A model generated the notes under the pieces. It ran no database searches and had not been told where the DNA came from. It saw nothing but the letters and a program-made list of their open reading frames with translations. From NCBI GenBank assembly GCA_032718475.1, contig JAUCBJ010007965.1, positions 1-62,457 on the forward strand: 62,457 nt of DNA. The letters are read 5' to 3'. This document shows positions 9,042 through 62,457 of the stretch, piece by piece; positions within the stretch are counted from its first letter, which is position 1, and the number at the start of each line of letters is the position of its first letter. The DNA comes from Nemertoderma westbladi. Its lineage: Eukaryota; Animalia; Xenacoelomorpha. The translations under genes and the position numbers were made by a program.

Positions 9042-10058
9042 CCTTCTCCTCAACTCTTCATCTCCTAAAAAACGCTGATAGTCTGACAGATAGATGTCAA
9101 TGGCATCCCTCTTATGCAGTTTCTCTGCCGTCGCTTCACTTTCCACTTGGGAAAAAGTAGCGTCTGTTGATTCTCCATGGGTTGAGCGCTCCTCCAGCTG
9201 AGCTTTCCACTGAGCTGTTCCTTGAACCTGGAGACTCACCCGCTGAAACCAAGTCTTTACGGCAACTTGCAACGACGTGTCTTGTCTTCTTTTAGAAGCC
9301 TCTTCAAAGGCCGATAAGATTAGCCTAATTCGCAGAATTCTTTCTCTAACTTGATAAAGCAGTTGTCCCTGCTCTTGAGGTCCTTGAGGTTGTTGAAACA
9401 GTTGTTCTTTTACTCGCTCCATAGAGCTGAAGAATCCCTGTGCGTATCCGGCTGCGGACCTCTTCCACACAGCTGGATCGATGGTTTCCTTGGCTACTCC
9501 CATCCGGTGTATGTCTTCCCAGGCAGCTTCTGATAAATCAAACGGGAGTCCGGGTCCGGGGAAGTTCCATTGCGACTCGACCATAGACTTCAGTTCTTCC
9601 CTTGTGTATCCCTCATAACTATCTTTAGTTGATTGCTTACTTCTCGCCCAATCGATCTGGTGTTCTTCCACCGCAATCAATAACCTAGTGAGTACGGCTG
9701 CAGGAAGGATGAGAAGGGGATCCGAATAAACCGCATCCGTCATCCTTGCTCCGCGCTCGGGTGTCAGCTCTACAGTATCCTCACTACTGGAGCTGTCGGG
9801 CCGCTGAGAAATAAGTTCTTGGCTCGCGGGTTGTTGCTGTTCCGCTGCTTCTTGGTCCCGCTTGACCTGAGCTCGAGTGCCTATGATAGACCTACGATGT
9901 TGGACCAGCCTCGGTTCTGTTATTACTACTGGAGGGATGACCTTCCTCACAGTGGGAGGTGAACTGAACTTAGGTGTAGACGGTTCTACACCCTTATCTG
10001 AGTCGCAGATAGTTACATCTAATAAACTGTCTGACATGTTCTGCTTAGTATCAGACAT
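8952..10058 (-). CDS. N-terminal gag fragment of family 2 copy A (starts MSDTKQN)
   Basis: Highly similar to the start of copy B gag (57123 downward); similarity stops at AKF near 8952. Confidence 0.85.
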
Positions 10059-12255
10059 GTTTGTTTGCACAGTTGAATGCCTACTGCTATATTACAGTCC
10101 AAGCAAGTCTAGTAATTCAGTATTAACTGCTAGCCTAGTAATTAATTACCGATACTGCTACTCAGTGTAGCGTGATATATATAATATTAGAATACCGGTA
10201 TGCTTATGGTATATATAAGTATTATTACAGACTAGGTTTTTCACAGAAACCGGTATATAATTTTAGCACAAATATATAAATATATAATAGGCCTATCGTG
10301 GATACCGGTATGCAGTTTACACTTATAGTATATATAAGTATAATTATTAACTAGAATTAATTACAGAATACCGGTATGATTTCAGCTTATATTTATAAAA
10401 TAAAAATAATAAGCCTATTGTAAATACCGGTATATCAATTATTTTAGAATAATTGAATTTCTGAATTTTAAGGGCTACTTGGTTACTTTAACTTACTTTA
10501 TCGCCGTTATTTAAGCAGTAGTCCAACTGATATTGAGACCTAATTGTTATATGGCAGGCCTACTATTTATAAATCGTTTGAGTTGATTTATAATATATAT
10601 ATACCCGTTTAATGGGTTTTGTCAATGTTTGAAATAAATGTTATTATTTCTGGGGGAGTCACCACACATAAGCTGTGCGCTCTCAGTGGAGTGCTACTTG
10701 TTAGACACTAAAACAAATAATTCTAATTTACCTAAGTTACTTAATACTACGAATTACGTACAATCCGGGTTGAGATTACAATCTCTAACTAAACACAAAA
10801 TTTTAATTACAAATACACAAATACAAATTTTTTAGGGTAATTTTACAAGAAGTCTACTAACCAGCCTAACAAAGGGTTAGAATATCTGGTTATTACAACG
10901 GACAGGTTACTACGGTATTTGAAAATAATAAGTAGTAGTAAATATACTGCGTTGTCCAGATAGGAAAATACCACCGCCTGACGACCTATAACCGTATCGC
11001 TATAGGTACTACGTTATGTATCACGGAGTGTTCCTACCTAGAGATTAATTACCGCGGTCTACCAGAACCAACGTGCCTATTAACCACTTTACAACACAAA
11101 TACACTGCCTACACACTAATTGCTTTCGGAAAGCACTGTACACTAAACCCTAAATTAGGTACAAGTACTTGTACAACAAATAATCAGTAGTTAAAAATAC
11201 TTGAACAGCTAAAAGAACCACGGTATCTGCCGGAGTGACCAAAGCATAAAATCTCCATTCTTTACCTACGCCGAGCAGCCCTGATGTAGTACCGGGGTTA
11301 GTTTAACTATAACGGTATGTATAACAAACACAATTACTGTAGGAACAAACTTGGGGAATGAATGTTGCGAATAATCGCATAAATTCTGAATAATAAATAT
11401 TACGCTACGCGTACAAACTACTCAAACAAAATGCAGACCAAATACTGACAGACTACTATCAAGCCTAAACAAACTACGGTATATGCAGACTCCGAAATGA
11501 TTAGTTAGTATGCGTTCTAACCCAGTAGTACGACTTATTCTTTCACAGGGGGTTTACCTCACAGCACTCAAAGCCCCTACTTTCCTAACTTAGCACTTTA
11601 TCGGACAGATGCTCTACACACACCGAAATTTCCTCAAACCCAACAACAGCCAGACAACTATCCAGCCTACAAATTATCTAAATAAAATTATACGCTACCC
11701 GTACAGACTACACAAACAAAGTACAGACCAAACGATGGCAGACTACTATCAAGCCTAAATAAACCACAGGACATGCAGACTCCGAAATGGTTAAGTAGTA
11801 TGCGTTCTAACCCAGTAGTACGACTTATTCTTTAGATGGGGGTTTACCTTACAGCTATGGCTGCCCCTACTTCCTAACCGTTCTTTATCGGACATACACT
11901 CTACATGCACTGCAATCCGTTCAGACCTAATCAACAGTTAGCCAACAGTCAAGCCTACAAATTATCTGTACAATCTGAGCAGGCTTACACACCTTCTGCT
12001 CAATACTGGCTTACAAATAAATAAAACTGACAGAAATAGGCCTAAGTAAAATCCCAATAAAAACCAGGCGTCCCCGATTAATTATTAAGACCTACCGGTA
12101 TATAATAATCAAATCGAATAATACTGCTGTACTTGTACTGTAAGTACCGGTTCGGATGATCAGGCAGTCAGGCCTACTGGTTACAGCAGTACAGGTTACC
12201 GTTCGACTGGTACCGGTACTTTAGACTTGATTGCTTACGCCGCAATCCAGAAGCA

Positions 12256-12266: not shown

Positions 12267-13435
12267 TGTTTGCGCTTTTAAGACCTTTGACAGTTTAACC
12301 TGCCAAATTAGGATGTCTTTTAGATGATATATATTCTTTAGCTTATGACGAGTATTTGAGACACTACATTAGCCGAAGCCAGTCTATGCGCAATCATTCA
12401 CCCGTTGGATATACCCGGGAGACTGGGTTCGGAAGCTTAATGATTGATGGTGTAAGCCTACTGTATTATTCGACTGATCGTAATATATAATCTCTGACAA
12501 ATATTATTCACTTTCGGGAAATATTAACAGTTCCTTTAGGGCGTGGCGCTCTAAATATGTAAACAGAGTTATGACTTAAACTAGACACAACGAAAAGGCT
12601 ATAGATTCACGTATATGGCGCATTCTTTAGGAGATGCTTTGTTATCAGTTACAATCATACACAATGCTGCACAATACTGCACACTAATCTGCCGACCTTC
12701 ACTAAATTTGGTCACGTATAAAGAGAGCAACATACAATTTATGTAGGGCATATGAAATAGCATTAGATTCACTTCAAACCACTTAACATAGGTCGCAATC
12801 GTTTATTTGTAACCGGTCTCTCTAACCTTTAGTATATCAAGAAGGTGGGGTATCTGACTATTGATCAGTATTCCGATATAATATTTCATCAACCAATATA
12901 ATGAATAACCGACAGTAAAAGCAGCAAAGTTAAGGTATGAATGATTATTAAGTGAGTTAACTGAGTTTTGGTATGATTTGGTTTGATAACAGATATACGT
13001 TCTATAATTAAGCCTACTAATGTAAAGCTAAAGAATGCTGATATACGGAAGTGCCAAAAGCCGGTGTTCTTAGGCTCTGGGCAAAAACATAACACTGAAC
13101 TACTGAGTTTCTGTATCCAATTCCAACAACACAGAGACAAAAAACGCTCTGATTGGTCAACCGAACAACGAGAGAACAAAGAAACAAAGAAATGTCGACG
13201 TGGCAATATCAGCTGTTAGCCGTCGTCATGGTAGCAACACTGTTTTCAAGAGTATCTAGCTTATCGCGTCACGAGATTGCGGATTATGTCCTCTAAAGTA
13301 CAAATACAGAAGAAATGACTTTTATGTCCTCTAAAACACCAGTACAGCAAGGACACGGCCTTTTTATGCCTGGCAAACCAACTACAGAGTACTTTAAGGG
13401 GATAATAACCGGCTAATTACGCAAAAGCTTTTACA
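12267..13435 (-). repeat. 5' LTR of family 2 copy A (1169 bp, TGT...ACA)
   Basis: Boundaries set by alignment with 43144-44343, 58831-60149 and 16078-16557; element strand starts TGTAAAAGC and ends GCGCAAACA. Confidence 0.88.
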
Positions 13436-16077: not shown

Positions 16078-16557
16078 TATGCTATTTCATAACCCCAACG
16101 TATGTGAGTCGCTATCCTCCTTATATATGATAAAAATCAGTGACAGTCGGCAAATCAGTGTGTGTTAGTAGTGTGAATATTAGTACAGAAATTGAGTGTG
16201 AAGTTTAATAAAGCATTCCTAAATAATGCGCCATTTGCGATACCCTATTGCCACTAGTTGTGATTAGTATAAGTCATAACTCTGTTTTTATACTTAAAGC
16301 GCCACGTCCTAAAGGAACTGTTAATATTTCCCCGAAAGTAAATATAGTTGTCGGAGATTATATAGTAGCGATCAATCGAATAATACAAAGTAGCCTACTC
16401 CTCTCTCTACAATAGAATCCAGTCTCCCACACCCATGGGTCATACGCCGCGCTAGACTGGCTTCAGCTGATGTCAATTAGTCCGGACGATTGTCAATTCC
16501 TAAGACACTTAAATTAGCGGCGCGGGTTAAACTGCTAAAGGTCTAAAAGCGCGAACA
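16078..16557 (+). mobile_element. 3' part of a family 2 LTR (solo or 3' LTR remnant)
   Basis: Shares aaagcattcctaa..aatgcgc, gtcataactctgttt and gcgccacgtcctaaaggaactgttaatatttccc; ends gtctaaaagcgcgaaCA; not followed by the PBS. Confidence 0.85.
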
Positions 16558-30393: not shown

Positions 30394-31037
<644 letters not shown>

Positions 31038-36920: not shown

Positions 36921-37026
36921 CGTGAGTAGTGACTAGAAGCAGAAGATGCCTCAACTTATTTAATACGTTTTATTGCTCCAAACATTTCCTCTCATGTTTT
37001 TTCTAGCCTTTTGGTTTATTTTGCAG

Positions 37027-43143: not shown

Positions 43144-44343
43144 TGTTCGCGCTTTTAGACCTTTAGCAGTTTAACCTGCCAAATTTAGGTGTCTTCTAGG
43201 TTATAAATCGACTTTAGCCTATAACAAGTGTTTGATACACATAAAGCTACATTAGCCGAAGCCAGCCTATGCGCGATCATTCACCCACGGTTAAGGGAGA
43301 CTGGATTCGGAAGCTCTGACCTTATTGCGGTGTAGACTTACTGTACTATTCGATTGATCGTTAATATATAATCTCTGACAAATATTATTCACTTTCGGGA
43401 AATATTAACAGTTCCTTTAGGACGTGGCGCTCTAAGTATGTAAACAGAGTTATGACTTACACTAAACACAACGGGATGGCTAATGATTTACGTATAAAGC
43501 GCATTCTTTAGGAAATGCTTTGTTATCTATCACACTCATGCACACTACCGCACAATGCTGCACACTGATCTGCCGACCTTCACTAATTTTAATCATATAT
43601 AAGGAGAACAGCAACTGACACATGTAGGGTCTATGAAATAGCATTCAATTCACTCCAAAACCACTATAATGTAAGTCGCAATTGCTATATGTAACCGGTC
43701 TCTCTAACCTTCAGTATATCAAGAAGATTGGGGTTTTCTGATTATTTATCGATATTCTCCAAATATAATCCATCAACTGATAACAATTAATAACCGACAG
43801 TAAATATCAGTAAAATAATGCGGTGAAAGGTATGTATAGTATTTGAGTTATGAATTATGCATTGAGTTGAGTTGAGTTGTTTGAGTTGATAACAGTTATA
43901 CGTTTCTATGATCAAAGCCGTTCTAATGTTTTGCTAAAGTCTGAAACACAGAATAATTCCACAGACGATGTTCTGGGCTCAGGAAAAAAGGTAACCAAAG
44001 ACCATAATGCATTGCGCGATTTCCCGGAGGCTTCTGTACAAATAAAATGAAAATCGCTCTGATTGGTCGAGTGAGAGAGCCTGAACAAAGAAAGCCAAAA
44101 GCTCCACATCGACATATCAGCTGATAGATGTCGTCATCTGAACTACACTGTATTAAGAGTATTTTGGCGCATTGCGGCATAAAATTGCTTGTTATGTCTG
44201 CTAAAGTACACATACAGAAAAAATGGCTTTTTATGTCCACTAAAACACCTACACAGTAAGAAAACGGCTTTTTATGTCCGCTAAAACACCTACAGAGTAC
44301 TTTGTGGGAAAAATGACTAGCTAGATCCGCAAAAGCCTTTACA
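43144..44343 (-). repeat. 3' LTR of copy B (1200 bp, TGT...ACA)
   Basis: Element strand TGTAAAGGCTTTTGCG...AAAAGCGCGAACA; colinear with 12267-13435. Confidence 0.9.
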
Positions 44344-44876: not shown

Positions 44877-46136
44877 TTAGAGATTCTGGATTTCCTGATT
44901 GAACTGACATAAAGCTAATTCGTTTACCGCTTGGACTTGCTGCTGCAATTTACATTTCTCTAAACAATTGTAGGTTCCTTTTCCGATCTTTTGACGAATA
45001 GTGTCCAACGCGTTTCGTACAACGCTCTCCTCGACTTCAGTGACGGGTTGTATCGGGGTTAAACCAGGACGATTGTACGGGTTGAACGGCGATATTAGAT
45101 GCCCGCGTCCCAATCCGGCTAGGTAGGAAGGGCAGATATCTAGCGAGCCCACTACCGGAGTGCCACCGATTAACTGTTCGGGTAACACAAGATCTTTAAA
45201 TAGTGAGTACAGTTCAGGGGGATCCGTTATACTATTAGGATCAAGCGTTTGAGGTCTCACTAAGGAATGAGGAGGTCTGACCGAGTATTCCGGAACTCTG
45301 ATCATGGGTTTATTTAAGGATCGTATGAGCCGAGCGAGCGTAGGTGATACGTCGAACAGGTTTCGCTCGAAACTTCCATAAGTATATTGTGTAAAACTGT
45401 GTTTAGCGCAACGTCTCCGCGGATGTTTATGTCTTTCCGTTTGCTGATTGGGTCTAGGGTATTCATCGCAGTAATACCAAAGACGCACGTCCTGCAGGGG
45501 AAACGCGGGTGATCGTTCTCCAGTTTTACAATATTCCTCCATCTGTTCGAAGCTATCTGGGACGACAGGTAGCGGTCGAACGGCGGTAAGATACATCATA
45601 GTGAAATAGAGCCGTTTGAGTTCTATCATAGGGTCATGATGTATACCTTGAGGATATCGAGTTTCTAGATTTTGTTGACTGGCGATATTGTGATATGTTT
45701 CTCTCAAGAATTCCAGATAATCGTTGAAGTCGCTGCGTTTATCCGGCTCTTCAACGTCTTCTCTTTCGAGTCGGTTCCGAATAGAATTCTCGTGTTCTAT
45801 TCTCGGTTTATTGTTCCGACTCTGCTGGGTATGATATTTAAATAAAACCATTTCCCTTTCGGTGTCTATATCGTCCGTATCGTGTAAATCGATAGGATGG
45901 CCAGTAGTTAAGAAGTCCATATACGTACCATTACGATGCGTATAGCGAGCGGTGAATTTTCTATAGTCCAATTCACGCGTAAGTTGCTCCTGGGACATCG
46001 GCGGTTCGATATAATGACCATCGTCCTCCGTAGTAGTTGGACTAGCGTCGCCGCGTATTAAGCTATCAACAAACGCTTGTAAAGTTAGAGTATATCGCTC
46101 CCTGATACCAAGATCATCTTCTATCAACTCAGTCAT
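44877..46136 (-). CDS. Extra ORF of copy B in the env position, 419 aa, unknown function (degenerate extension to ~44422)
   Basis: Long non-repetitive ORF on the element strand between pol and PPT; no evident signal peptide or transmembrane segment; no domain recognised. Confidence 0.8.
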   Translation of the reverse strand: MTELIEDDLGIRERYTLTLQAFVDSLIRGDASPTTTEDDGHYIEPPMSQEQLTRELDYRKFTARYTHRNGTYMDFLTTGHPIDLHDTDDIDTEREMVLFKYHTQQSRNNKPRIEHENSIRNRLEREDVEEPDKRSDFNDYLEFLRETYHNIASQQNLETRYPQGIHHDPMIELKRLYFTMMYLTAVRPLPVVPDSFEQMEEYCKTGERSPAFPLQDVRLWYYCDEYPRPNQQTERHKHPRRRCAKHSFTQYTYGSFERNLFDVSPTLARLIRSLNKPMIRVPEYSVRPPHSLVRPQTLDPNSITDPPELYSLFKDLVLPEQLIGGTPVVGSLDICPSYLAGLGRGHLISPFNPYNRPGLTPIQPVTEVEESVVRNALDTIRQKIGKGTYNCLEKCKLQQQVQAVNELALCQFNQEIQNL

Positions 46137-47839
46137 AGCTGCTATATGAGTTTATCAATATTATAATAAGTTTATAATTAGGCTAGCGGGCGTCGCTGCC
46201 TACCCCTCACGGCCCCCGGACAGTGCAAGATCCTCAGCGCTGATGTACTGTCGCCGATGTGCCTATCGCCAACATAGTAGCTGCACAACGACAACAACAA
46301 CCAGCGCGAGTCACTCCACTGTCTGTCCCAAAGGCTTAGATTTACTTCAGGTTCTTACTGCAGAGTTAGGGCTACTTTCACAATTGCGACTCGCTACTGT
46401 AAACACACTTTAGTAGTAACATTCACCTATAAACGCACAAATTCCACACAACTGTCACAAATTGTACACATTCGGGCCATTTGTCCGTTAGTCAAGTGCC
46501 TTCCAGAATGCCACGTTATTATTATGTATCCTTGGATACTAGCAGTGTGCTATTTATTCCTTATGCTATTCAATGGGGCAAGCTTTCTATTGTTCTTTTA
46601 ACTCGCTTCTAATTCTAGCGTGGTTGTTGCTATGGTGACATTATGGAAAGCTAGCGGTAGAATTAGGGTAATTCCCATGCATACAGATCTGGGATGCTAT
46701 TTAATAGTAATTCTTTAATTGTCAATATCCCCTTTATACATGATTTTATGAATTTTATCGGCTATTGACTATATATGGGAGATTCCCGCACACTAATACA
46801 CTCAATAGGGTGAATCTCCGCTCCCATGATCTATTAATTAATTGAATTTTTGGGAATGTCATAAATTGCATAAAATGACAATTTATCAAATTCATTAAAA
46901 AGATGAATTTAAATTTATTCCTGTAAATTTTTTTATTTATCCTTAAAACAGACATAATTTTATTCCAGAGCATGTCTGGGGACTAGTATCCTTAATTCTA
47001 GGAAATTTGTCCTTTTAAGAGCATCGGTAAGTGCTACGATATCTTAATAGACTAGAATTTTAAAGGATCTAAAATTTTACAGATTTTAATTTATAGATTT
47101 TCTAGAGTTAACTTGTAAGTAGTTACTCTATTGTATCTGTTTGACAGATTTTATAAATATTAATAGTTAATATTTAAGATGGGCACCGGTTTATTCCAGA
47201 ACGTGTCTGGGGACGTTAACCACTGATTCTAGAATTTTGTCTTTCAAGTATATCGGTGGGTGCCGCGATATCTTAATTGACTAGAATTACAGATGGTCAA
47301 AGGGTTTAACAGATTTATTTTGCATTTTATGCTACTGTTAAAGGGACATCACGCTACTATATGTATTATTTAATATATGGTATGAGAGCAATATCACAAG
47401 AAGCAATGTCAGTGAGAAGAGGCAAGTCGTTTCCAAGGTCTACCCAGAGCTTGGTTTAGCCGAGACACGAGGATCTGAATTTTGCATTCCTAATACTCTA
47501 CTTACCAATAATACTTGAATATAGTAAGAGCTTTATTGTACTTTAATAAGTACGGACATTTCATCTTACTGTAGTCACGTATTTATAATGTACTACGGAC
47601 AGTAAGGAAAGAGAAAAAAGAATTATTTCTCGCCGTCGCACTAAATATATAATATATAAGTAATTAAGTAATAAGACTAATATATATTGCACTAATCTAC
47701 TAAATAATCGCTAAAATAACATTCTACTAAATAAAATTAAAGAAAACGATTATAATAAAATTACATAAAAATACATACATAAATATAAAATAATAAAAAT
47801 ATATGAAATAATATAGTCACACACCCACTCCAGACGCTG

Positions 47840-50800
47840 TTACGTTGGGGAGTCCCTAGATGTTTGTTGGATTAGGGAGGTGGTCGTGGGAAGAGTATCT
47901 TGCCTTCCATAGTTTCCGGAGAGTTCTCTGTCTCTTTCCAGTAAACATAAACGACCAACTGGGCGATTGAGCTGCTGCGTCTCGAAGACAATTCCCGGTT
48001 TCTTAAAGTTACGTCGCATGACGACGAGTTCTACCGATCGCACCAAACCATCATCCGAGATATGAGTCTCGATGATACGACCTGTCTGCCACCGCTTACG
48101 TGGAAGATCTGAATCCACAATAAGGACCATGTCTCCGGCGCTGACGTTTTCTTGCTGCGCAAACCACTTAGTTCGAAGTTGTAGAGTAGGCAGATAATGT
48201 TTTTCGAAATGGTCAGCGAAACGACGGGATAACAACTGCATAAGTTGCCAAGTTTGCCGGCAGTATTCGTCTCCGTCCGTGATTTCCGATCGTGGGAGCA
48301 TGGCTACAGGTTTCTTCAGTAGGAAGTGCGCGGGTGTTAGCGCTTCCAGGGAATCGGGACTCGATGAGACTGGCATAAGCGGTCTCTCGTTGAGATAGGC
48401 GGCGATTTCCTCCATTAACGTCCGCAAAAGTTCGTCGGTGAGATACGCGCGGCACGGCACTATAAAGTGAAATGCGGTCTTCACGCTTCTGATTAATCTC
48501 TCCCAACTTCCTCCCCACCACGGGGCGTCGGCAGCGTTGAAGGTCCAACTAGACGCTGTTACCCTTAGCTGATCGTCCACCTGTCTTTGGTTCCAATCTT
48601 TGACGTAAGCCTTAATTTCATTGTTGGCACCAATGAAGTTCGTTCCCTTATCAGATCTCATCGTGTTGCTAGTTCCAAAGCGAGCGATCTGTCGGCGTAA
48701 GCTCAATATGAAGCTATTGGTAGATAAATCGTTCACCATATTGAGATGGATAGCTCTACAAGTCATACAGACAAAGATGACACACCATCTCTTGACTATA
48801 GTCCTAGCACGATATACTTCAATAGGGCCAAATAAATCCATACCGGTATTAGTAAAGGGTGGTTCATAGAAGCTTACTCGTTCCCTAGGTAATTCTGCCT
48901 CTCGCTGTGTTAAAGGCCTACTGAATGCTTTCCTACAGGGTATGCAGTTCCTAAGAACTTGGTTCAGAGCTCTACGGGGTTTATAAAAATAATAGCGAGT
49001 TCGAATTTCGCTAAGAACTCGTTCTCTACCAGCATGATAAAGCTTACTGTGAACATCTACAATCATCTTGATTTGTATTTCAAGATTTCTAATGAGTATG
49101 GGAAACTTAGTGTCAAAGGATAATGGAGCATTAGTTAGTCTTCCTCCAACGCGTATTAACCCATCTATCATTGTGCTAGAGAAACGATCCCTTAAGCGCA
49201 TCTGTGGATTTCTCAACAACAGGAAATACTTATCGGAATCCTCATAGCATTGCAGGAGTCTCAGTATCTGCTTATTGGTTTCTTCATGCTCCTGGTAACT
49301 GATCTTCTCCTTCAGAAACCTGTCGGATATCTTGTATTTGGGAAGATCTTTAACAACATGGACCTGCGCAGATGTCAGTGGAGCGGTATCACTAGTGGTC
49401 TTCGTCCTGGAGTAGTGATGATGAAAACATCGCTTTAAATATGTAACGGCCTTACAGAGCCGATTCCAGGAACTATAGTGATGTATCGCTCTCTGCAGGA
49501 GGGGTGAGAGTCCTTGCGAGACGTCTGGTATTCCAGATTTCCAATCTCTCTCTCTGATTTCCACAACAGACTTATTTGTGGCTGTGGGTTTCGGATCCAA
49601 AGCGTCGTCTCCGGAAGTGTGTAGTACAGACAGATCTATCACGGGTTTAAATAACTTCGATTTACTCGCCCGGGTTTTAGGTTTGACTTTCTCCGCTCCC
49701 TTGGCCTGTCTAATCTCCGCCGTAGTAAGATGAGGAGGCCATTCATCCTCTTCCTTGCTTAGGAAGTCGGGTCCACCTAACCAGTCTGGAGTATCTATCA
49801 GTTCTTGCGGAGTTGCTCCCCTGGAGGCGATGTCGGCTGGATTAATCGTCCCAGGGCAATGTCTCCATTGATCTATCTTCGTGCGACTAAGTATAATGGC
49901 TACTCTGTTGGTAACGAAGACGCTGAACTGACAGACTTCATTGGTTATATACTCCAACACGAGTAAAGCATCGGTCCAATAGATAGTTTTCTCCAGTGGA
50001 TAGTCGATCTGTTCTGTTACATTCCGGCCGATGGCTGTAGCGTATAGAGCCGCTTTTAACTCCGCTCGAGGAACTTTCAACTTGTTGTTTATCAATGCCT
50101 TAGAGGTAACCAAGGCGACCTTAATTCCATCCGGAGTTTCAACTCTCAGGTAGGCTACTATACCTATTCCCATATCGCTGGTGTCTCCAAACACATGGAG
50201 TTGATAGGAATACGTAGGGAGAACATGACCAAAATATGAACGGGAAATTATAAAGTTCTCGATGGATGGTAGAGAATCTTCCCATTTCATCCACTTCTTT
50301 AATAGTTCTCCCTTAAGTGGATCGTCCCATGTGTGGTTTTCAAGCCATATTTGTTGTACTATACTCCGAGCAATCAATATAACTGGGCTAATAAATCCCA
50401 ATGGATCGAAATAAGTGCTCAGGATACTTAGACAAATCCGTTTAGTCCGAACTGGATTATCTCGCTGTTTTAGCTGGAAAAACAGGATATCTCTCTCTGT
50501 GTCCCATTTCAAACCAAGCGTCTTGGTTTCTGGAAGATCGTCCTTGATTAGGTCTAGATCTTTAACTCCTCGGTCTTCTACCGGGATCGATTCCAGAAAC
50601 TCACGGGAGTTGCTGGTGAATTTAGTTAATCGAAATCCACCTCTTTTCAAGCACTCTACCGTTCCTTTGGCGACATCAATGGCTTCTTCCACCGATGGGA
50701 GGGACTTTAAATTGTCGTCCATGTATATATCCCGTTTGATGTTGTCGATAACCTCTTTAGAGAAGGCGTCCCGGTTGTCATCAGCAGTGGTGCGCACTAC

Positions 50801-51856
50801 TGAGCAGGCGTTTGAAGGGCTTGAGATGATCCCAAAAGCCTGGATGGTCATCCAGTACTCCACCGGTTTCTGGTTGAGGTCTCCTTCAGGCCACCACAGA
50901 AATCGTAGGCTGTCTCGATCTCTATCCAGCGCCTTAACTTGTAAGAACATGCCTTCTATATCGGAGGCGAAAGCGATTGAATATTGTCATAATCTTAAGA
51001 GTATTCCCAACAAGGATTGTAGTAAGTTGGGTCCTGGCAACAACTCGGAGTTAAGGGATTGGCCCATGTAGAGGGCGGAGCCGTCAAATACTACCCGGAC
51101 TTCATTGGGTTTACCAGGTTTGGGAACGTAATGATGTGTTAAATAGTACGTTCTCTCAGTTATGGGTGTTCCTTCCGGTACTCGCTCCGCATATCCCTTG
51201 TCAATGAATTTCTTCAGCTGGGTCTTGTACATCTCCTTAGCTGAAGCATTTGCCATAAGGCATCGATGTAGTTGCGCAATTCTCTTCTCCGCCAAGGGTC
51301 GGTTGTTTATAAAATTGGGTTCTCGCCGTCGGAAAGGCAGACCAATCTCATACCTACCTTGATCTTTAAGAAAACGTGTAGTTGTTTCCTGTATCTGCTT
51401 GGCTCTTTCTTCTTCTACCGATAGGGCCTTATCGTAGGAATTGGGCTCTACAGCCTCTTGAGTAAAGAATCGTTCGGCGTGTTCAGCACGAGTCTTCGCA
51501 TTGTAGCAATCTATCACTTCATTCAGTTCGTCGTTGTAGTCGACTTGTCCTGCTGGATGAATGAGGTGACATAGGTTCACTTGGTTTTGCCAAGTTTCAT
51601 TTTCCGTAAGGAGGTCAATGGTATTCTCCTCGTCGAAGAGTTGGTGGATATCGTCATTATCTGAGGAGTATGGTGTTCCCTCAGTTGGGTCGTCTCCCTC
51701 ACTGATCTCATCTTCCCATTCACTCACCTGGTAGACTCTTTCTTTGGGTAGCCTTTCCATGAGAGTTCTACGGGAAGGGCCAGTAAAGTACCAACCTACT
51801 CTAGTTCTTCCCGCATAGGTTTGTAGTGGTTGCGGTTGAGCAGGCCGTTTCTCCAA
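47840..51856 (-). pseudogene. pol of copy B: RT, Pao-type RNase H, integrase; one in-frame stop at 50987-50989
   Basis: YYLTHH..VRVVFDGS and IYMDD RT; HVFGDTS, RAEL, WTD, NPADIASRG RNase H; HSKLYH..CIPC zinc finger with GMDLFGP, RSDKGTNF, SWERL integrase triad. Confidence 0.95.
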
Positions 51857-54800
51857 TGTCTCAAGCGCCTCATGCGCATTTTGGCCGATAAGTATTTGTA
51901 CTCCAGGTTAGTCTGTGTTGAATCTAGGTATCTTATGCTGCTGGGTGAAATCGTCCTCATCCCAGTTATAAGGTTCCACTTGGCTGGTAGCGAAGTTCTT
52001 TATCGCCACCATTTTTACTGACCTTATGCTGTGTTCTCCTAGTTCATCCTGGGGGGTGGACAACGCGCCTATATAGTAATCTGTAGTTACTGTAGATTTC
52101 CAAACCTGCATAATTCCTGACATGTTCAACTTAGTTCGGAACTTGGTTATCCAGCAAAGATGTCTTCGGCTAGTTCTTTGTCGATGAATGTTCCTGTGCT
52201 GCCGGAGTCAAGGAGGGCGTTCACTATATAACTCTTGTCTGGCCCGTGGACTCTCAACTGCACTACGGGAAATTCTTGGATTCCTACGTTGGAAGTTGGT
52301 GCTTTCCAAGATGGTTGTCGGTCAGGAGTAGTTAGGGGGAGCTCATTGACGGTTTCCTTCTCATACGTAAGTGCTTGATACACTGCGGTATTTATTAGGT
52401 AACAGGATTCGTTTTCGTCGGAGAATTCATCCGTATAGAATCCTTCCATCTCAGAACTTTGGTCAGTGTCGTTCACATCACTGAATTGGACATGTAGTTC
52501 GGGCTCACTTACCTGACTCGGGCTGTTTCTTTCGAATTCAGTGCGCAACAAGATATGATGTTTTGCGCCGCACTTAGCACACCTTGCGTCGGAGTAACAG
52601 GTTCGCCGTTGGTGTCCTTGTCTGAGGCAATTATAACACAACCGCTTATTCCACATGACTTCACGTCTATCTATTAGGGATTTCCTCAGGAATTCATCAC
52701 ACGCACTTAAACGGTGGGGCCCGTCGCACAGCACACATTTTGGTTTGATGTTACTTACCTTACTTTGGGTAACGTTGTGCACACTCATTCTTTCCTCGGG
52801 CTTTCTTCCATGAATTCTCTTAGGAGACGTAGGAGGAGTTTTTCTTACCTGTTCTCTCCTGTCATTGGTTCGAGACTTGAATTTACTTACGTCTTTAGGC
52901 GCTTTGTTGACATAGTAAGATCTATCAATGTCTTTCCCGCTGTCCTCCTCTTGAGAGGCCTGGCTTTCACCGTCGTCTGTATAACACACTGGTGTTACCT
53001 TTCTCCTAGAAACGGGTTTCTCACTTACCTTATTTTCCGGTGTCTTCTCTCTGGACTGCTTTAGGAGCTGTAATTTTACCTCTCCATCTAAGAATGACAT
53101 GAGATCAGCCATGGTAGGGTCTCGTCGTTGTTGTTCCATCCTATATAAGACTTTCTTGTCCCAGCGTGTACCTACTCCACCCTTTGGTAAAGTAGAGGCC
53201 ACGGCTCCAATAACCATAGAACTCTGATATTCATGAGACTTACCTAGCCAATCTAATTGTCTACAGATTTCCTGAATCTCATCGGAAAACTCTATAATCC
53301 CGCTGCTAATGAACTTTCGGGGCGCTACCAATTTTGCATACAAATACCTAGCTATGTTATTTCTATTACCATACCTGATGTTTAGTGTATCCCAAACTTG
53401 TCTTAATTCATCTGGATGTCCAAACAAACTTTAACGCCATTAACTTGGGAGATCCTTCCAAGCACTCGATGAGGAATCTAAGTTTCTCTCCGTTAGATAA
53501 CACAGAGTTCTGTATGTTATCTTTGTAATATTCATTAAAAGGTAACCATTTCATCTCAACTCCATTGAACTTGACGATCTCTCCCACCTTTACCGCTTGA
53601 CAGACTTCGGTTCTAGCCATTTGACGCGTAAAACTTTCTTGGGCCATCGTATTATTTAATATCGAGTTATCGGTATATAAATTTCTCGGATTATTATCAG
53701 GTCTATATGGAATATCATTGTCAACAGGTTTATAATTACCCTTAATAGGGTTTACTATAGGAGTTTCTACTTCACTAGCAGTATAGATGCGTGTAGGCTC
53801 CACACCTTGCGCATGAAATACTTCAGACCTAACAGGTTGACACATTGTTACAGGGGGTGGTGGTATACCCTTTTGTGTATTTACTAATTTATCGCGTTCT
53901 AACGTGATATTCTGCTGCACTTCTTGCAACTCTAACCTACTTTCCCTTACTGTTCCCTTGAACTGTTGAACAGTCTCCTGCATCTGCCCGAGCAGGAGAT
54001 CCATCCCCCGCCGTCCCTCATCCACCCACTCGACCGCCGAAGCGGGAGCCACCAACATAGTAGCGGGTAGATGAGGGACAACAGGCGACAAATCATTGAT
54101 ATTTCGCTCGGAGTCCAGGACAGGAACTGTCTCAGGGGCTGTTCTGCTGGGCACAGGTAGTTTAGTGCTGTGCAAAGGGGATTTAGAGTTGGGTTCTGGA
54201 AGTACAGGGGTCTCTATCACAGAGGGGGTAGCTTCGAGAACAGGCCCAATCATTTCAGGCTCATCTACTATAGTAGGGAGTCTTTTTACTCTAATAATTT
54301 GGTCTGTGGGTTCTGTACTACCTAAGTCCGTGCTAGCTAGTTGCCTTCTCACAGCTGGGGGCAAATCAGGCAATTTCTGACGGTGGGGCATTCTTCTACG
54401 CCTGCTGAGACGAGATCTATTTCCTCCGCCTTCAGGATCTGTTGTATCGCCTTCATCCAATGATGTAAAGCCCTGTCGCTTGGGGGTGGATCGACTTATC
54501 TGCTGCATCTGGCTAGCTGTTATCTGTTTATTGAAGTTGTCTTGTTTCTCTTGAAGATCTTCCAACTCTAGTTGGGTTGTCTCTTCAGATGCCCTCCGTT
54601 CTGCTTCTGCCACTGCCACTGCCGCTTTTCTTTCCACTTCTACTGCTGCAGCTGCCGCTTTTGCCTCTGCCGCTGCCGCTTTTCTTTCCGCTTCTGCTTC
54701 TACCGCTGCTGCTTTTGCCTCTGCCACTGCCGCTGCCGATGCCACCTTTCTTTCAACTTCTGCAGCTGCCGCTGCTGCTGCCTTTCTGTCTTCTATTCGT

Positions 54801-57123
54801 TTTTTCTTTAATTGTTCTTCCTGTTCCCTAACGATGCGGATTCTTTCATCAAATTTAGCTCGATCCGCTTCTAACCTTTCCGCATCTATTGCGTCCAACA
54901 CAAACTTGGCTCCTTCACTATTAGGACGAAGTCCAGCCAGCCATCTCCTCAACTCTTTGTCTCCTACAAATCGTTGATAGTCCGACAGGTAGATGTCAAT
55001 AGCGTCCTTCTTCTGAGGTTTCTCTAATGTAACCTCGCTTTCCACCTGAGAAAAGGCAGCGTCTGTTGATTCTCCATGGGTGGAGCGCTCAGCCAGCTGA
55101 AATTTCCACTGGGCCGTTCCTTGAACCTTGAGACTCACCCGCTGGAAACAAGTCTTTACGGCAACTTGCAACGACGTGTCTTGTCTTCTTTTCGAAGCTT
55201 CCTCAAAGGCCGATAGGATTAGTCTGATTCTTAGAATTCTTTCTCGAACTTGATAAAGCAGCTCTCCCTGCTCTTGAGGTCCTTGGGGTTGTTGAAACAG
55301 TTGTTCCTCTAATCGCTCCAAAGAGCTGAAGAATCCCTGTACGTATCCTGCTGCTGACCTCTTCCACACAGCTGGATCACTAGTGTCTTTTGTCACTCCC
55401 ATCCTGTGTATGTCTTCCCAGGCAGCTTCCGATAAGTCAAACGGGAGTCCGGGTCCGGGGAAGTTCCATTGCGACTCGACAATAGACTTCAGTTCCTCCC
55501 TTGTGTATCCCGCATAACTGTCATTGGTTGATCGCTTACTTCTCGCCCAATCAATTTGGTGTTCCTCCACCGCAATCAATACCTTAGTGAGTACGGCTGC
55601 AGGAAGAATGAGAAGGGGATCCGAATAAACCGCTTCGGAAGCAGGACAATTCGGTCCCGGACAATTCGGTCCGGACAATTCGGTCCCGGACAATTCGGTC
55701 CCGGACAATTCGGTCCCATTAATTTTGTGTTTTGGGACCGAATTGTCCGGGACCGAATTGTCCAGGACCGAATTGTCCGGATACTGACTAGGACAATTCG
55801 GTCCCAAAACATGCAAATTAATGGGACCGAATTGTCCGGGACCGAATTGTCCGGGACCGAATTGTCCGGGACCGAATTGTCCAGGACCGAATTGTCCGGG
55901 ACCAAATTTAATTGGTACTATATAATGGTGAATTTTCTAGAACCTTAATATATATTATTATATGGTAGCTAGTGTTTTTTTTTACTAACTAGTATTTTTT
56001 TATAAATAAAAAAAATTTACTTTTTTTTGTTAACATTATTATTTATGGTAGCTATTGTGTTTTTATGGAGCTTGTGAATTATTTACTAGCTAGTAATAGT
56101 ATGTATTTAAAATGTTTAAAACTGATTTTTTTAAATACTGCGTAAGTATAATGTACAGTATGTGTTGTTGGTTGGTAACAAGCCTAAATTATTATCCTAG
56201 ATAATAGCTGGATCTCATTCAGGGACTGTTATAATATCATCAATATTGTTGGTAATTAATATAATCAGCAACAGTTTAGGCCTAATTCTGAAATATCAAT
56301 GTTTTCACAAGTGTTTTTATAATTTCAAGGAAATGCTAGCTAGTAAAAAAAAACACTAGCTACACCTTAATAAATAATATATAATAATGTTCTCGAACAC
56401 TTACAATAACAAAAATAAAAAAAAATACAGTATTTTTAAAATTTCAAAAAATTCTAGCAAGTAAATAACACTAGCTACCATAACAAATATCTCTACTAAT
56501 GTTCTAGAACATTCACCAATATCAAAAAAAGCACTAAAAAGTTGCTATCAGGAACCGGACAATTCGGTCCTGGACAATTCGGTCCCGGACAATTCGGTCC
56601 CGGACAATTCGGTCCTAGGACAATTCGGTCCTAGGACAATTCGGTCCCGGACAATTCGGTCCCGGACAATTCGGTCCCATTTATTTAGTGTTTTGGGACC
56701 GAATTGTCCGGGACCGAATTGTCCGGGACCGAATTGTCCGGACCGAATTGTCCGGGACCGAATTGTCCGGGACCGAATTGTCCTACATCCAACCGCTTCT
56801 GCCATCCTTTCTCCGCGCTCGGGTGTCAGCTCTACAGTATCCGAACTACTGGAGCTATCGGGCCGCTGAGAAATAAGTTCTCGGCTAGGGTGTTGCTGCT
56901 GTTTGACAGCTGCTTCTTGATCCCACTTGACTTGAGCCCGAGTGCCTATGATAGACCTACGGTGTTGGACTAGCCTAGGGTCTGATACTACTACTTGAGG
57001 GATGATCTTTCTTACAGTAGGAGGTGAGTTGAACTTCGGTCTCAAACGTTCAGCACTCCTATCTGGGTCACAGATGGTTGTATCTAGGAGACTGTCTGAC
57101 AGGTTTTGCTTTGTGTCAGACAT
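51857..57123 (-). pseudogene. gag and protease of copy B, with frameshifts near 53420 and 52147, a stop at 51908 and a foldback insertion
   Basis: IVKFNG gag motif; three Cys/His knuckles (CVLCDGPH, CYNCLRQGHQRRTC, CAKCGAKHH); LLDSGS protease; Ala/Glu/Lys coiled coil. Confidence 0.9.
55637..56790. mobile_element. Non-autonomous foldback element, Mutator-like (9-bp TSD), inserted in gag of copy B
   Basis: TSD aaccgcttc at 55628-55636 and 56791-56799; termini ggaagcaggacaattcggtcc / ggaccgaattgtcctacatcc; 17-bp ggacaattcggtcccg-type arrays; empty site visible in copy A near 9729-9737. Confidence 0.92.
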
Positions 57124-58830
57124 GTTTGTTTGTACAGTTGAATGCCTACTGCTATATTACAGTTAAAGCAAGTCTAGTAATTCAGTATCAACTGTTAGCC
57201 TAGTAATTAATTACCGATATCGTTACTCTATGTAACGTGATATATATACAAGATATTAAAGTACCGGTATACACTTATAGTATATATATAAGTATTATTA
57301 CAGACTAGGTTTTTTCACAGAATACCGGTATATAATTTCAGCGCAAATATATATAAATATATAATAAGCCTATCGTAAATACCGGTATGTCAATTATTTT
57401 AGAATAATTGAATTTCAGAATTTTTAGTGGTTACTTGGTTACTTTACTTTACTTTATTACCGTTACTGTATTTAAGCAGTAGTCCAACTGATATTAATAC
57501 CTAATTGATGTATAACAGGCCTACTATTTTATAAATCGATTTGAGTTGATTTATAATATATATATACCCGTATAATGGGTTTTTTCAATGTTTGAAATAA
57601 ATGTTATCATTTCTGGTAAGGAGTCACTACACAGAAGCTGTACGCTCTCAGTGAAGTGCTACTTGTTGGACACTAAAACAAATAATTCTACTTGCCTAAG
57701 TTACTCATTACTACAAATTACGTACAATTCGGGTGAGATTACAATCTCTAAATAAACACAAAAATTACACGTACGAATTTTTAGGGTTAATTTTACAAGA
57801 AATCTACAAACCAGCCTAACAAGGGTTAGAATTTCTGGTTATTACAAGCGGACAGGATACTACGGTATTTGAAAATAATAAAGCAGTAGTAAATATATTG
57901 TGTTGTCCAGATAGGAAAATACCACCATCTGACGACTTATAGCCGTAGCGCTATAAGTACTACGTTATGTACCCGGAGTGTTCCTACCTAGAAGTTAATT
58001 ACCGCAGCCTACTATAGCTAACGTGCCTATTAACCACTTTACAACACAAATATACTGTCTACAAACTAATTACCTTCGGAAAGCACTATACACTAAATTA
58101 GGTACAAGTACTTATACAACAAATAACCAGCAGTTAAAAATACTTGTACAGCTAAAAGAACCACGGTATCTGCCGGAGTGACCAGAGCATAAAATCACCA
58201 GTCTTTACCTACGCCAAACAGTCCTGATGTAGTACCGGGGTTAATTTAACTATAACGGTATGTATAACAAGCACAATTACTGTTGGAATAAACTTGGGGT
58301 TATGAATGTTGCGAGTAATCGCATATACTCTGAATAATAAATATTACGCTACCCGTACAGACTACACAAACAAAATACAAACCAAATGCTGGCAGACTAC
58401 TATCAAGCCTAAATAAACTACAGTATATGCAGACTCCGAAATGGTTAGTTAGTATGCGTTCTAACCGAGTAGTACGACTTATTCTTTCGGGGGGGGATTT
58501 ACCTTACAGCACTGGATGCCCACACGTTCCTAACTAGTACTTTATCGGACATACACTTTACACACACTGCAATCTCTTCAGACCTAACAATAGCCAGACA
58601 ACAATCCAGCCTACAAATTATTTATACAATCTGAGCAGGCTTACACGCCTTCTGCTCAATATTAACTTACAAATAAATAAAACTGACAGAAATAAGTAAA
58701 ATCCCAATAAAAAACCAGGCGTCCCCGATTAAATATTAAGACCTACCGGTATATAATTATCAAAATCGAATAATACTGCTGTACCTGTACTGCTGTAAGT
58801 ACCGGTTCGGGTGGTTAGGTAGTCAGGCCT

Positions 58831-60149
58831 TGTAAAAGCTTCTGTGGGATGCAACTGGTCCTTCGCCCCGCGATCCAGTTTTTCCCCCATACGCTGAAAT
58901 ACTCTGAAACCTGCTGTAAAAGCGTTTACAGATATAATTGGATCCCCTAGCCCTCGGGGTGCTGTATAAGTGTTTTTAACGGACATAAAATAGATTCTTC
59001 TGAATGTGTGCTTTATGCGGACGTAGCAGGGTACATAACCCGCAATGCGGCATTTCACTGTCACTATGTCAAGGGAAGGATTCTGATTACGACATCTCCC
59101 AGCTGGATGATGACGTGGAGGGAGCTCTCATTGGACTCCTGGTTCCTTTGTTTTGGTCTAACAACCAATCAGGGTGATTTGCGTTTTCCTTGAAGAGATA
59201 CCTACAGCAGCTCCCAAACTCAGTTTTTATGTCGTTCTATACTGCCTGAAGATCGGCTGGAATGACGCAATGTTTCTGCCTTTTTATAAGAACATTAGTA
59301 GGCTAAATTATAGAAAGCATAGCTATTATCCATTTGATCCGATTTGATCCGATTTGATCCGATTTGATCCGATTCGATCCGATTCGATTCGACACGATTC
59401 CAATTTATAACTTAACGATTCAATGCAATCTAATTATATCTTAACCTACCGTCATACTGCTTTTACTGTTTGTAATTTTGTATCAGTATAATTGGATGTT
59501 ATTAGTTGAAGAATATCAATAATCAACCCACATTTTCCCAATATCCTTGAAACACTACAGGTTAGAGAGAAGGGTTATGTACAACAATTGCGACTTTATT
59601 ATTGTGTTTGTAGTGAATCTAATGTTGTTTGACAGACACTACCTGAGTCCAGTGCATATCTCTTTATACCTGATCAAAGTCAGTAACTGTCGGCATATCA
59701 GTGAGCAGTGTTGTGCGTTACCGGTAGCGTGCGTGATTGTAAAGTGATTGGATCTGATAATAAAGCATTCCTAAAGAATGCGCCCTATGCTTGAAATTTA
59801 AGCCATATTGTTGTGTGTAGTATCAGTCATAACTCTGTTTACATAGGTAGAGCGCCACGTCCTAAAAGGAACTGCTAATATTTCCCGAAAGTGAATAATA
59901 TTTGTCAGAGATTATATATTAGTAATCAATCGAATAATACAGTAGGCTTGACCGCAAATAAATTTAAGCCCACGAATCCAGTCTCCCGGTGTTATAAACG
60001 GGTCATTTGGACGCGCATGGACTGGCTTCGGCTAATGTTTTTGGTTTGTTTTTGTATTAAATCTTGTCATCTTATAAAAGGCAGTTTATCAATAAAGACA
60101 TATAAATTTCGGCAGGTTAAACTGCTGAAGGTCTATAAAAGCGCGTACA
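58831..60149 (+). repeat. 5' LTR of copy C (1319 bp, TGT...ACA)
   Basis: Starts TGTAAAAGCTT, ends AAAAGCGCGTACA; contains (atttgatccg)n at 59332-59400. Confidence 0.88.
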
Positions 60150-60160
60150 ATAATAGCTAT
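60150..60160 (+). promoter_or_regulatory. Primer-binding site of copy C (ATAATAGCTAT), complementary to its own LTR
   Basis: Abuts LTR end; exact reverse complement of atagctattat at 59319-59329. Confidence 0.8.
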
Positions 60161-62186
60161 CGATCTTATTTGCGGTAAGCAATAAGATTGAAAGTACCGG
60201 CACTCCAGTAGGTCAGTAGGCCCAACTGTCATAACCGGTACTACTACCGTAGGTCCGTAGGCCCAACTGTCATAACCGGTACTGCTGTACAAGTACATTA
60301 GTATTATTCGATTTTGATTATTGTATACCGGTAGGTCTTGATACTAAATCGGGGACGCCTGGTTTTTATTGGGATTTTACTTAGGTTTATTTCTGTCAGT
60401 TTTATTTCCTAGTAAGTTAATATTGAGCTGAAGACGTGTAAGTCTGCTCAGATTGTTCAGATCATTGTAGGCTGGACTGTTGTCTGACTGTTGTTAGGCT
60501 TGAAGATTACAGCGTGTGTAGAGGTCTGATAGGTGCCAGTTAGTAAGTTGGGGCAACTCGTAAGTTGTAAGGTCAACCCCCATAAAGAATAAGCCGCGCT
60601 ACCTTATTAGCACGCATACTCACTAACAAGTTTCGGAATCTGCATATACTGTGGTTATTTAGGCTTGATAGTAGTCCGTCAGCGTTTATACTGTACTGTC
60701 TGTATAGTCCGTTCAGATACCGTAATAGTATTATTTAGATATTTGTAGGCTGGATTGTTGCCTAGCTGTTGTTGGGTCTGAAGAGATTGCCGCGTGTGTA
60801 GAGAGTCTGATAGGTGCCAGTTAGTAAGTTGGGGCAACTCGTCAGTTGTAAGGTCAACCCCCATAAAGAATAAGCCGCGCTACCGTATTAGCACGCATAC
60901 TCACTAACAAGTTTCGGAATCTGCACATCCTGTGGTTTATTTAGGCTTAATGGTAGTTTGTCAGCATCCGGTTTGTATTTTATTTGAGTATTCTGTACGG
61001 GTAGCGTAATATTTATTATTCAGAGTTTATGCGATTACTCGCAACATTCATGTCCCCAAGTTTATTCCTACAGTAATTGTGTTTGTTATACATACCGTTA
61101 TAGTTAAATTAACCCCAGTACTACACGGGCTGCTTGGCGTAGGTAAAGACTGGTGACTCAGTGCCCCGGTCACTCCAGCAGATGCTGTGGTTCTTTTAAC
61201 TGTTCAAGTATATTTAACTACTGGTTATCTGTTTTTACAAGTACCTGTACCTAATTTAGGGTTTAGTGTACAGTGCTTTCCGAAAGTAATTAGTGTAGGC
61301 ATTATTGTGTTGTAAAGTGGTTAATAGGCACGCTCGTTCTGGTAGACGGCGGTAATTAACTTCTAGGTAGGAACACTCCGTAGATACATAACGTTGTACC
61401 TATAGCGATACGGCTGTAGGTCGTCAGGCGGTGGTACTTTCCTATCTAGACAACGCAGTATTTACTTCTACTTATTATTTTCAAATACCGTAGTATCCTG
61501 TTCGTTGTAATAGCCAGAAGTTCTAACCCTTTGTTAGACTGGTTAGTAGTTTCCCTGTGAAATTGCCCTAAAAAATTTCTGTACGTAACGTTTTGTGTGT
61601 TTATTAGAGATTGTAATCTCACCAATAGTAAGTAACTAGTAAATAAGTAACGTAGGCCAGTAGAATTATTCTGTTTAGTGTCCCATAAGTAGTACTTCAC
61701 TAAAAGCGCTTAGCTTCTGTGTAGTGGTATTTTGCCGGAAATAGTAACATCTATTTCAATCTTGTAACGAAATACCTTATCAGGGTATATATATATATTA
61801 TAAATCAACTCCAAAGATTTATAAATCAGTAGGCCTGCCATACAACAAGTAGGTCACAATATCAGTTGGACTACTGCTTGCATAATGGTAACAAAGTAAA
61901 CTCAAGTAACTAAGTAACTTATAATTTCAGAAATTCAATTATCCTAAATAATTGATATACCGGTATCTATAATAGGCTTAATATATATTTGTATATATTT
62001 GAATTGAAATTATATACCGGTACTCTGTAACAAACCTAGTCTGCAATACTTATATATACTGTGGGTGTATACCGGTATCCTAATATATTGTAATTAATTA
62101 ACTGTACTAGGCCAACAGTCTTACTGAATTACTAGACTTGCTTTAACTGTAACTATAGCAATAGGCATTCAACTGTACAAACAAAC

Positions 62187-62457
62187 ATGTCTGACACAAC
62201 CCAATCACTGTCAGATAGTCTCTTAGAAAGTGTTAGAATGACTGTGAGGCAGTGTCTTAAAAAGAGCAGTGACCCAGACCAAAATATAGAACATCCCAGA
62301 CACAGGTCTAAGTCCCCTCCTACTGTAAGAAAGGCCATCCCTACAGTAATAGTGTCAGACCCTAGGCTAATCCACCATAGGTCTATCATAGGCACTCGGG
62401 CCCAAGTCAAACGGAACCCAGAGGAAGCTGTCCTATCGCAGCAACATCCTGATCACG
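62187..62457 (+). CDS. Start of gag of copy C (MSDTTQSLSDSLL...), open to the window edge
   Basis: Hand translation is open and matches the A/B N-terminus (SPPTVRK, RSIIGTRAQVKR). Confidence 0.85.
   Translation, partial: MSDTTQSLSDSLLESVRMTVRQCLKKSSDPDQNIEHPRHRSKSPPTVRKAIPTVIVSDPRLIHHRSIIGTRAQVKRNPEEAVLSQQHPDH

Follow-up and report, generated by a model that had tools for sequence, protein, structure and literature searches.

The Tf1 retrotransposon is self-primed through a cut after nucleotide 11 by way of RT/RNase H, according to the available part of the report (PMC7175516), and its 'pretzel' consists of three duplexes in the accessible portion of a preprint (bioRxiv 10.1101/2022.12.06.519325). 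For Tf2, the available text describes that the choice of start site governs priming competence, in another form (PMC5341516). The accessible sections of further papers name Tf1/sushi, Tcn1, TAR/Houba/Osr-1 and fungal elements as self-priming (PMC6317226, PMC3601003, PMC4600332, PMC6934838), and for the Ty1/copia elements TAR/Houba/Osr-1 and for Tcn1 self-priming was deduced, in the portion available, from a complement of at least 10 bp between the PBS and the LTR (PMC6317226). The ICTV profile of Belpaoviridae gives an 18-nt PBS for tRNA-Arg or tRNA-Gly, LTR lengths of 0.2-1.2 kb and genome sizes of 4.2-10 kb; it presents BEL/Pao replication as primed by tRNA and as little understood (PMC8742986). 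Two BEL/Pao surveys do not mention the PBS, tRNA or priming (PMC3118150, PMC554778), and the available parts of two other papers add nothing on priming (PMC8220671, PMC12451622). Our literature search, with subscription journals, Repbase entries and supplements outside its scope, returned no report of BEL/Pao self-priming. To our knowledge, Tf1 is the one element for which self-priming has been demonstrated; for its relatives and some plant copia elements it is predicted.

Here, we analysed a window (the whole stretch of DNA under study, 62,457 nt) of Nemertoderma westbladi, GCA_032718475.1, contig JAUCBJ010007965.1, positions 1-62,457 of the forward strand. An initial annotation had proposed that a BEL/Pao element in it, carrying LTRs of family 2, primes itself as Tf1 does. 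We find self-priming to be the best reading, supported by a U5 stem, an LTR-leader duplex and self-complementary PBSs in elements elsewhere, although the TATA argument that had been made for the transcript start fails. Judged from its sequence, family 2 quite probably self-primes with an 11-mer of its own LTR in a Tf1-like manner.

Results

Family 2 and its assignment to BEL/Pao

Pieces of LTR family 2 are present four times in the window (copies A, B, C and D; Table 1). The LTR ends were set by comparison of the four LTR copies, which are 65-76% alike overall. Public contigs agree with two of these ends: the repeat flanking the B 3' LTR stops at 43143, and loose ends cluster at 12266/12267 for copy A. 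The family is high-copy and diverse, with 11,704 contigs placed on 1551 nt (B 3' LTR, run X1). A search for its LTR motifs in viral and metagenome contigs gave 0 matches, and a pol search of viral contigs gave no relative of family 2. Because copy C sits in the leader of copy B at 58830, the PBS of B lies outside the window.

The BEL/Pao identity given in the initial annotation is supported by Pfam matches to PF05380 (Pao-type RNase H, E value 5.7e-35), PF03564 (DUF1759 gag, 4.7e-5) and PF18701 (DUF5641 tail, 2.6e-20). Among 115 homologs, PF05380 or PF18701 was present in 114. The domain order PR-RT-RH-IN, the TG..CA LTRs and the PPT before the 3' LTR are those of BEL/Pao; the 18-nt tRNA-Arg/tRNA-Gly PBS of the ICTV description is absent, and the class assignment rests on the proteins. 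No chromodomain match was obtained, and family 2 does not fall within Tf1/sushi (Ty3/gypsy). By these sequence features, family 2 likely works like Tf1 but belongs to BEL/Pao.

Copy B spans 15.7 kb without a 5' LTR, of which about 1.1 kb is an insertion, and has a 2-kb leader. Its RT, RNase H and integrase motifs are intact, with the four acidic residues of RNase H present. Its gag carries DUF1759. The insertion in gag (approximately 55644-56783) has inverted 15-mer arrays at both ends and is MITE- or foldback-like. The extra ORF of B gave no Pfam match, and its Atlas scores were at most 0.81; its product may conceivably be env-like or accessory. The best identities in the protein libraries are 33-40% (pol best about 40%), and therefore no close relative is on record; the named matches at the top of the ranking come from sea urchins, fish, molluscs and a sea anemone.

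Several other features were observed in the window. A second BEL/Pao family at 2141-9041 (+), with 33% pol identity to B, runs with its pol into the gag of A at about 8952; repeat arrays lie upstream of it at 946-1933, and no LTR of it was found within the window. At 20354-21709 (-) there is a tubulin ORF without introns (beta-type start MREIV), possibly a retrocopy. Two non-LTR (LINE-type) RT fragments at 17325-18255 and 32028-33353 (-) are 98% identical and carry DUF6451, and long tandem arrays with units of 37, 25, 6, 64-68 and 18 nt occupy 22406-27666, 30394-31038, 34155-36923 and 37386-41192. Within the 3' half of the family 2 LTR, about 100-150 nt (59820-59945 and the homologs in A, B and D) are near-invariant, with 88% in the best 100 columns and no Rfam match; in an Rfam scan of 58800-62457, no family came close to its gathering score. 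We considered whether the conserved U5 block might be a ribozyme and dropped this reading, as the topology did not fit by eye.

Table 1. Positions of family 2 features in the window, and related loci in other hosts
Feature	Position	Strand	Remarks
Copy C 5' LTR	58831..60149	+	1319 nt, TG...CA; inserted in copy B leader
CCAAT box	59165..59169	+	conserved in A, B, C; ~155-170 nt upstream of 11-mer
ACATTAG (-27..-21)	59292..59298	+	invariant; possible promoter element; no covariation
Copy C candidate 11-nt self-primer ATAGCTATTAT	59319-59329	+	exact complement of C PBS
Anti-primer alpha of C	59756..59762	+	pairs with primer +6..+12 (59324-59330), 7/7
Hairpin between anti-primer strands	59765..59781	+	invariant, 4 bp; three-way junction
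Anti-primer beta of C	59785..59792	+	pairs with -4..+4 (59315-59322), 8/8; 3 covarying pairs
LTR strand of 11-bp LTR-leader duplex (C)	59930..59940	+	partner 60301-60311
U5 stem 5' strand	60011..60016	+	partner 60141-60146
U5 stem 3' strand	60141..60146	+	ends 3 nt before PBS
Copy C PBS ATAATAGCTAT	60150-60160	+	flush with LTR end, no TGG
Copy C leader and gag start	60161..62457	+	leader ~2 kb, gag start near 62187; cut by window end
Leader strand of LTR-leader duplex (C)	60301..60311	+	
Leader strand of LTR-leader duplex (B)	58776-58766	-	in B leader
Copy A 5' LTR	12267..13435	-	1169 nt
Copy A candidate self-primer ATATCTGTTAT	12996-12986	-	exact complement of A PBS
Anti-primer of A	12609..12646	-	alpha 12646-12640, beta 12616-12609
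Copy A PBS ATAACAGATAT	12266-12256	-	directly after LTR
Copy A leader and 5' part of gag	8952..12255	-	ends at junction with another BEL/Pao element
Copy B leader	57157..58830	-	cut ~88 nt behind B PBS by copy C insertion
Copy B gag, protease, RT N-terminus	50987..57156	-	broken into several frames
Copy B pol	47840..50986	-	RT (YMDD), RNase H (Pfam Peptidase_A17), integrase HHCC/DDE, DUF5641
Copy B extra ORF	44877..46151	-	424 aa, between pol and 3' LTR
Copy B 3' LTR	43144..44343	-	1200 nt, polypurine tract before
Copy B 11-mer, third variant	43899-43889	-	in 3' LTR
Anti-primer of B	43490..43527	-	alpha 43527-43521, beta 43497-43490
Copy D, 3' part of fourth LTR	16079..16557	+	without 11-mer; other letters at anti-primer strands
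Intron-split loci	L011, L015, L016, L023, L029, L047/L042, L053, L069, L070, L085		other hosts

Complementarity between the PBS and the LTR

Rechecking of coordinates and sequence bore out the core of the initial annotation: no TGG-type PBS follows the 5' LTR of A or C, the PBS of each is the exact complement of an 11-mer at the homologous place of its own LTR, and the LTR of B carries its 11-mer where it had been placed. As had also been claimed, two of the 11 positions differ between A and C, with the changes mirrored on both strands, and the pairing is exactly 11 bp in each copy. The differing letters are at primer positions 4 and 7; the pairing begins flush at the LTR end, and there is none on either side of it. 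Each of these two 11-mers occurs once per strand in the window, and no tRNA gene was found there. When the LTRs were dinucleotide-shuffled 3000 times each, an exact PBS complement arose in 4 shuffles for A and in 2 for C. For comparison, among all 11-mers of the leader, 3 of 2056 (A) and 5 of 2021 (C) are matched by an exact complement in the LTR, a count that includes the PBS. At LTR-wide substitution rates, the 11-mer of A would change to exactly that of C with a rough probability of about 3e-4. When the A primer is paired with the C PBS and the reverse, the duplex weakens from about -10.5 to -3.9 and -0.4 kcal/mol.

Public contigs hold an exact copy of the A LTR-PBS junction at a depth of 3831 (run X3), and three contigs of other copies part from A at PBS position 11-12; run X4 had no contig cover at this junction. 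The covariation is thus far that of two PBS/primer pairs and three LTRs, and from the third LTR the PBS of B is predicted to read ATAACAGTTAT. The mirrored PBS changes need not mean selection, because under the Tf1 model the self-primer would be copied into the PBS. The 11-mer is contiguous in A, B and C, with no longer intron-split match. An intron between primer and PBS (conserved AG|GTTAG) was considered and rejected by reasoning, because strong-stop DNA would lose it. Just 3' of the PBS, a hairpin ATTGC..GCAAT (60165-60190 and 12250-12225) is kept in A and C with differing letters.

A proposed anti-primer that pairs with the 11-mer

In predicted folds with its upstream sequence attached, the 11-mer moves onto a second LTR partner in A, B and C. 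The two strands of this anti-primer lie 350-470 nt downstream of the 11-mer and cover 10 of 11 primer bases, leaving only C5 unpaired. In the 559-column alignment, its helices are the sole ones of at least 5 bp that are Watson-Crick paired in all three rows, and a covarying helix of at least 7 bp appeared in 0 of 60 column shuffles. All cells of the junction are paired (57/57), four pairs are changed on both sides, and one pair takes three forms (A-U, U-A, G-C); slid controls were 17-54% paired, and a shuffle control of 5-8/500 is weak with three related rows. Since copying of the primer cannot template the anti-primer, its covariation would therefore reflect selection. The anti-primer switch is a new part that competes with the primer:PBS pairing, and it had been missed in the initial annotation. 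It is predicted to mask the 11-mer whenever upstream LTR sequence is attached.

Folding predictions on RNAs of 800-1000 nt, which depend on the ends chosen, gave a primer:PBS probability of 0.96-1.0 for RNA beginning at the 11-mer. This value falls to 0.21 in A with 12 extra upstream nucleotides; with 20, it is 0.03 for A and 0.09 for C. Under constrained folding, primer:PBS was preferred in 4/4 cases without upstream bases and the masked form in 16/16 cases with 10-60 nt, and the masked form was favoured by 2-12 kcal/mol with 20-60 nt upstream. By these predictions, primer:PBS would win only for an RNA whose start lies no further than about 10-15 nt from the 11-mer. The primer:PBS probability in A ranged from 0.17 to 0.99 depending on the 3' end chosen, and one MFE structure of A leaves the 11-mer on the anti-primer. 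The primer:PBS duplex itself is AU-rich (about -10.5 kcal/mol) and spans a very long loop of 730-830 nt, and the whole-loop MFE did not differ significantly from shuffles (z of -1.7 and -0.3).

Two further duplexes may assist the pairing. A scan of the whole LTR gave eight helices of at least 6 bp, three of them with two-sided changes, of which the third is the U5 stem (6 bp, two covarying pairs across A, B and C). The LTR-leader duplex has 11 bp in A and C, lies about 140-150 nt after the PBS and shows no two-sided change; B retains it through a G-U pair. The energy of the flank duplexes was better than that of shuffles in C (3 and 4/100) and not in A (20 and 69/100). By analogy, these two duplexes and primer:PBS would make up an arrangement akin to the Tf1 'pretzel' with its three duplexes.

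Start site and promoter signals

The initial annotation had used TATAAG to place the transcript start. This argument does not hold, as TATAAG lies at -34 in C only and has no counterpart in A or B, and no TATA box is conserved across A, B and C. Conserved signals upstream of the 11-mer are a CCAAT box and ACATTAG (Table 1), the latter complementary to an invariant CTAATGT at 60032-60038. A pyrimidine/A step is found at -1/+1 of the 11-mer in all three copies. Together with the sharp 11-nt limit and the folding result, this step leads us to lean slightly towards a transcript start at the 11-mer; conserved pairings reach -27, and so a start further upstream fits too. No poly(A) hexamer is conserved that would show R reaching past the anti-primer.

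Self-complementary PBSs in other BEL/Pao elements

Searches with pol gave 94 BEL/Pao loci, 18 of which have a usable LTR end; in 11 it was set by LTR comparison or by the contig end, and in 7 by an inverted repeat only. Three of the 18 have a tRNA-type TGG PBS, and none of these has a self-complement (0/3, at most 6 nt). Among the 15 loci with a non-tRNA PBS, 10 have an LTR complement of 10-14 nt split by an intron (GT/GC donor, YAG acceptor; Table 1), although L069/L070 and L015/L016 are close kin and 4 of the 10 LTR ends come from the inverted repeat; the other five have no complement under the strict rule. Shuffled PBSs reached the score of the split complement in 0-2/100, and a foreign PBS used as a control reached a 13-nt split match in the long LTR of A. 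In the intron-split loci the first exon holds only 3-7 primer nucleotides and there is no TATA 30 nt before the primer begins, a hint that the first exon is longer. At L075, a contiguous 11-nt PBS complement was read by eye at offset 4.

L075 is young, with identical 320-nt LTRs (5' LTR at about 6091-6410) and a TATA-like motif about 27 nt upstream. Loci L068-L094 are 27 contigs in bacterial or archaeal genome records that hold BEL/Pao elements of animal type; most likely, host DNA was binned into MAGs there.

Quick trees were built without named clade references (Bel, Pao, Suzu, Sinbad, Tas), and family 2 stands on a long branch in them; the RT-RH tree excludes 17 of the 94 loci, for which RT-RH cover was below 330 aa. 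A branch with SH-aLRT support of 95 (RT-RH) and 89 (RT-RH-IN) has the self-signature elements on one side. Family 2 is placed beside them in the RT-RH tree (91) and has no resolved position in the RT-RH-IN tree. AU tests, from which Planococcus was left out as a long branch, rejected none of three constraints (p of 0.60 for the self-signature side, 0.82 for the insect/tRNA-type grouping and 0.21 for L004), of which the insect/tRNA-type grouping had the best likelihood. If family 2 and the intron-split lineages are separate, self-priming would have arisen twice within BEL/Pao.

Discussion

Beyond the sequence complementarity, we infer the following course of priming. A priming-competent RNA would start at the 11-mer or within about 10 nt of it, and the 11-mer would close the loop onto the PBS, aided by the U5 stem and the leader duplex. 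RT/RNase H would cut after nucleotide 11, where an invariant C12 lies opposite a mismatch, and the cut 11-mer would prime minus-strand DNA flush with the LTR end. In plus-strand synthesis the primer would be copied and would rewrite the PBS, which we propose as the reason that the PBS changes mirror the primer and stop at 11. The masked copies would be the 11-mer of the 3' LTR (if R is long enough), those in RNAs started upstream and that in plus-strand strong-stop DNA; these carry upstream bases, and hence could not compete for the PBS.

Several other explanations can be weighed against this course. The first of them stays within self-priming and differs in the start site, which would lie at least 30 nt upstream, so that the RNA is masked by default, as a translation state, until the 11-mer is moved to the PBS by Gag/nucleocapsid or by dimerisation. 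Pairings that reach -20 and -27, the invariant ACATTAG/CTAATGT pair and the longer first exon hinted at by the intron-split relatives are consistent with such an internal primer. We nevertheless consider it the less likely variant of self-priming, because with 20-60 nt upstream the energy difference found under constrained folding favours masking, because a 5' extension should tend to lengthen the PBS complement, which stops at 11 in A, C and the three contigs, and because the 11-mer begins at the pyrimidine/A step in A, B and C.

Second, the pairings may form a switch for packaging, dimerisation or translation, with priming by a host RNA (a tRNA half or another small RNA) or by another route. 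The tRNA-Arg or tRNA-Gly primers that the ICTV assigns to Belpaoviridae (PMC8742986), the half-tRNA primers that exist in Ty1/copia according to the available portion of one paper (PMC6317226) and the network of alternative helices in the LTR would suit this explanation. It is improbable in view of the PBS itself, which has no TGG and whose complement begins, in A as in C, with the base that directly follows the LTR; moreover, a host RNA would rewrite an invariant PBS, yet two of the 11 PBS positions vary, and the LTR varies with them.

Third, the 3' end of the RNA could prime, if in the 3' LTR the transcript terminates or is cleaved directly behind the 11-mer and then pairs with the PBS without any 5' cleavage. 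The same complement would allow this topology, and conservation drops just after the 11-mer (depth from 107196 to 2301, run X1), but upstream of the 11-mer there is no conserved poly(A) or cleavage signal, and, although the 3' copy has upstream bases, a transcript ending there would be without the anti-primer, whose conservation would go unexplained; we give this route very little weight. The least credible account is that the match is due to chance or is left over from an AT-rich, near-palindromic motif, for although the 11-mer of B is nearly palindromic and the sequence AT-rich, the palindrome is broken in A and C, where the PBS goes with the complement and not with a direct copy, and shuffles reach the match in only 0.07-0.13% per copy, with the mirrored changes at about 3e-4.

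Self-priming by the LTR 11-mer would have several consequences. First, it would extend self-priming to a third LTR superfamily and free BEL/Pao elements from control via host tRNAs. Second, the anti-primer would address a general problem of self-primers, namely that the RNA contains two copies of the primer sequence and plus-strand DNA a further one, and the model of its action yields letter-exact predictions. Third, a self-complementary PBS explains why tRNA-based PBS searches miss such elements. As a tentative generalisation, which could well hold and about which we are somewhat doubtful, BEL/Pao may have evolved tRNA-free self-priming plus a device that licenses one primer copy, this being an RNA switch toggled by the start site here and splicing in the intron-bearing relatives.

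Compared with the known systems, family 2 combines features of two groups. Like Belpaoviridae (Semotivirus), it has a Gag with DUF1759, RT, Pao-type RNase H (PF05380), integrase with DUF5641, TG..CA LTRs and a PPT; unlike the elements of that profile, it has no tRNA PBS, its LTRs are 1.17-1.32 kb, copy B spans 15.7 kb without counting a 5' LTR and there is an extra 3' ORF. As in Tf1, Tf2, Tj1 and Tf1/sushi, as far as the accessible descriptions go, an 11-nt LTR segment is complementary to the PBS after the 5' LTR and there is no tRNA site, and, as in the accounts available for the Tf1 group, there may be two further duplexes, in which PBS-side sequence would pair with LTR sequence downstream of the primer. 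Unlike the Tf1 group, which are Ty3/gypsy chromoviruses, family 2 belongs to BEL/Pao and has a loop of 730-830 nt, and its second duplex lies some distance after the PBS and does not adjoin it as in the available Tf1 text. The complement also reaches the length of at least 10 bp used for TAR/Houba/Osr-1 and Tcn1 in the accessible part of that work; these are plant copia and gypsy lineages, for which the same part mentions no masking structure. The covarying anti-primer junction, mutually exclusive with primer:PBS, has no equivalent in the portions of the Tf1 descriptions available. The intron-split BEL/Pao elements, like family 2, match a non-tRNA PBS to their own LTR over 10-14 nt, and their complement forms only after splicing, whereas family 2 has a contiguous complement together with an anti-primer.
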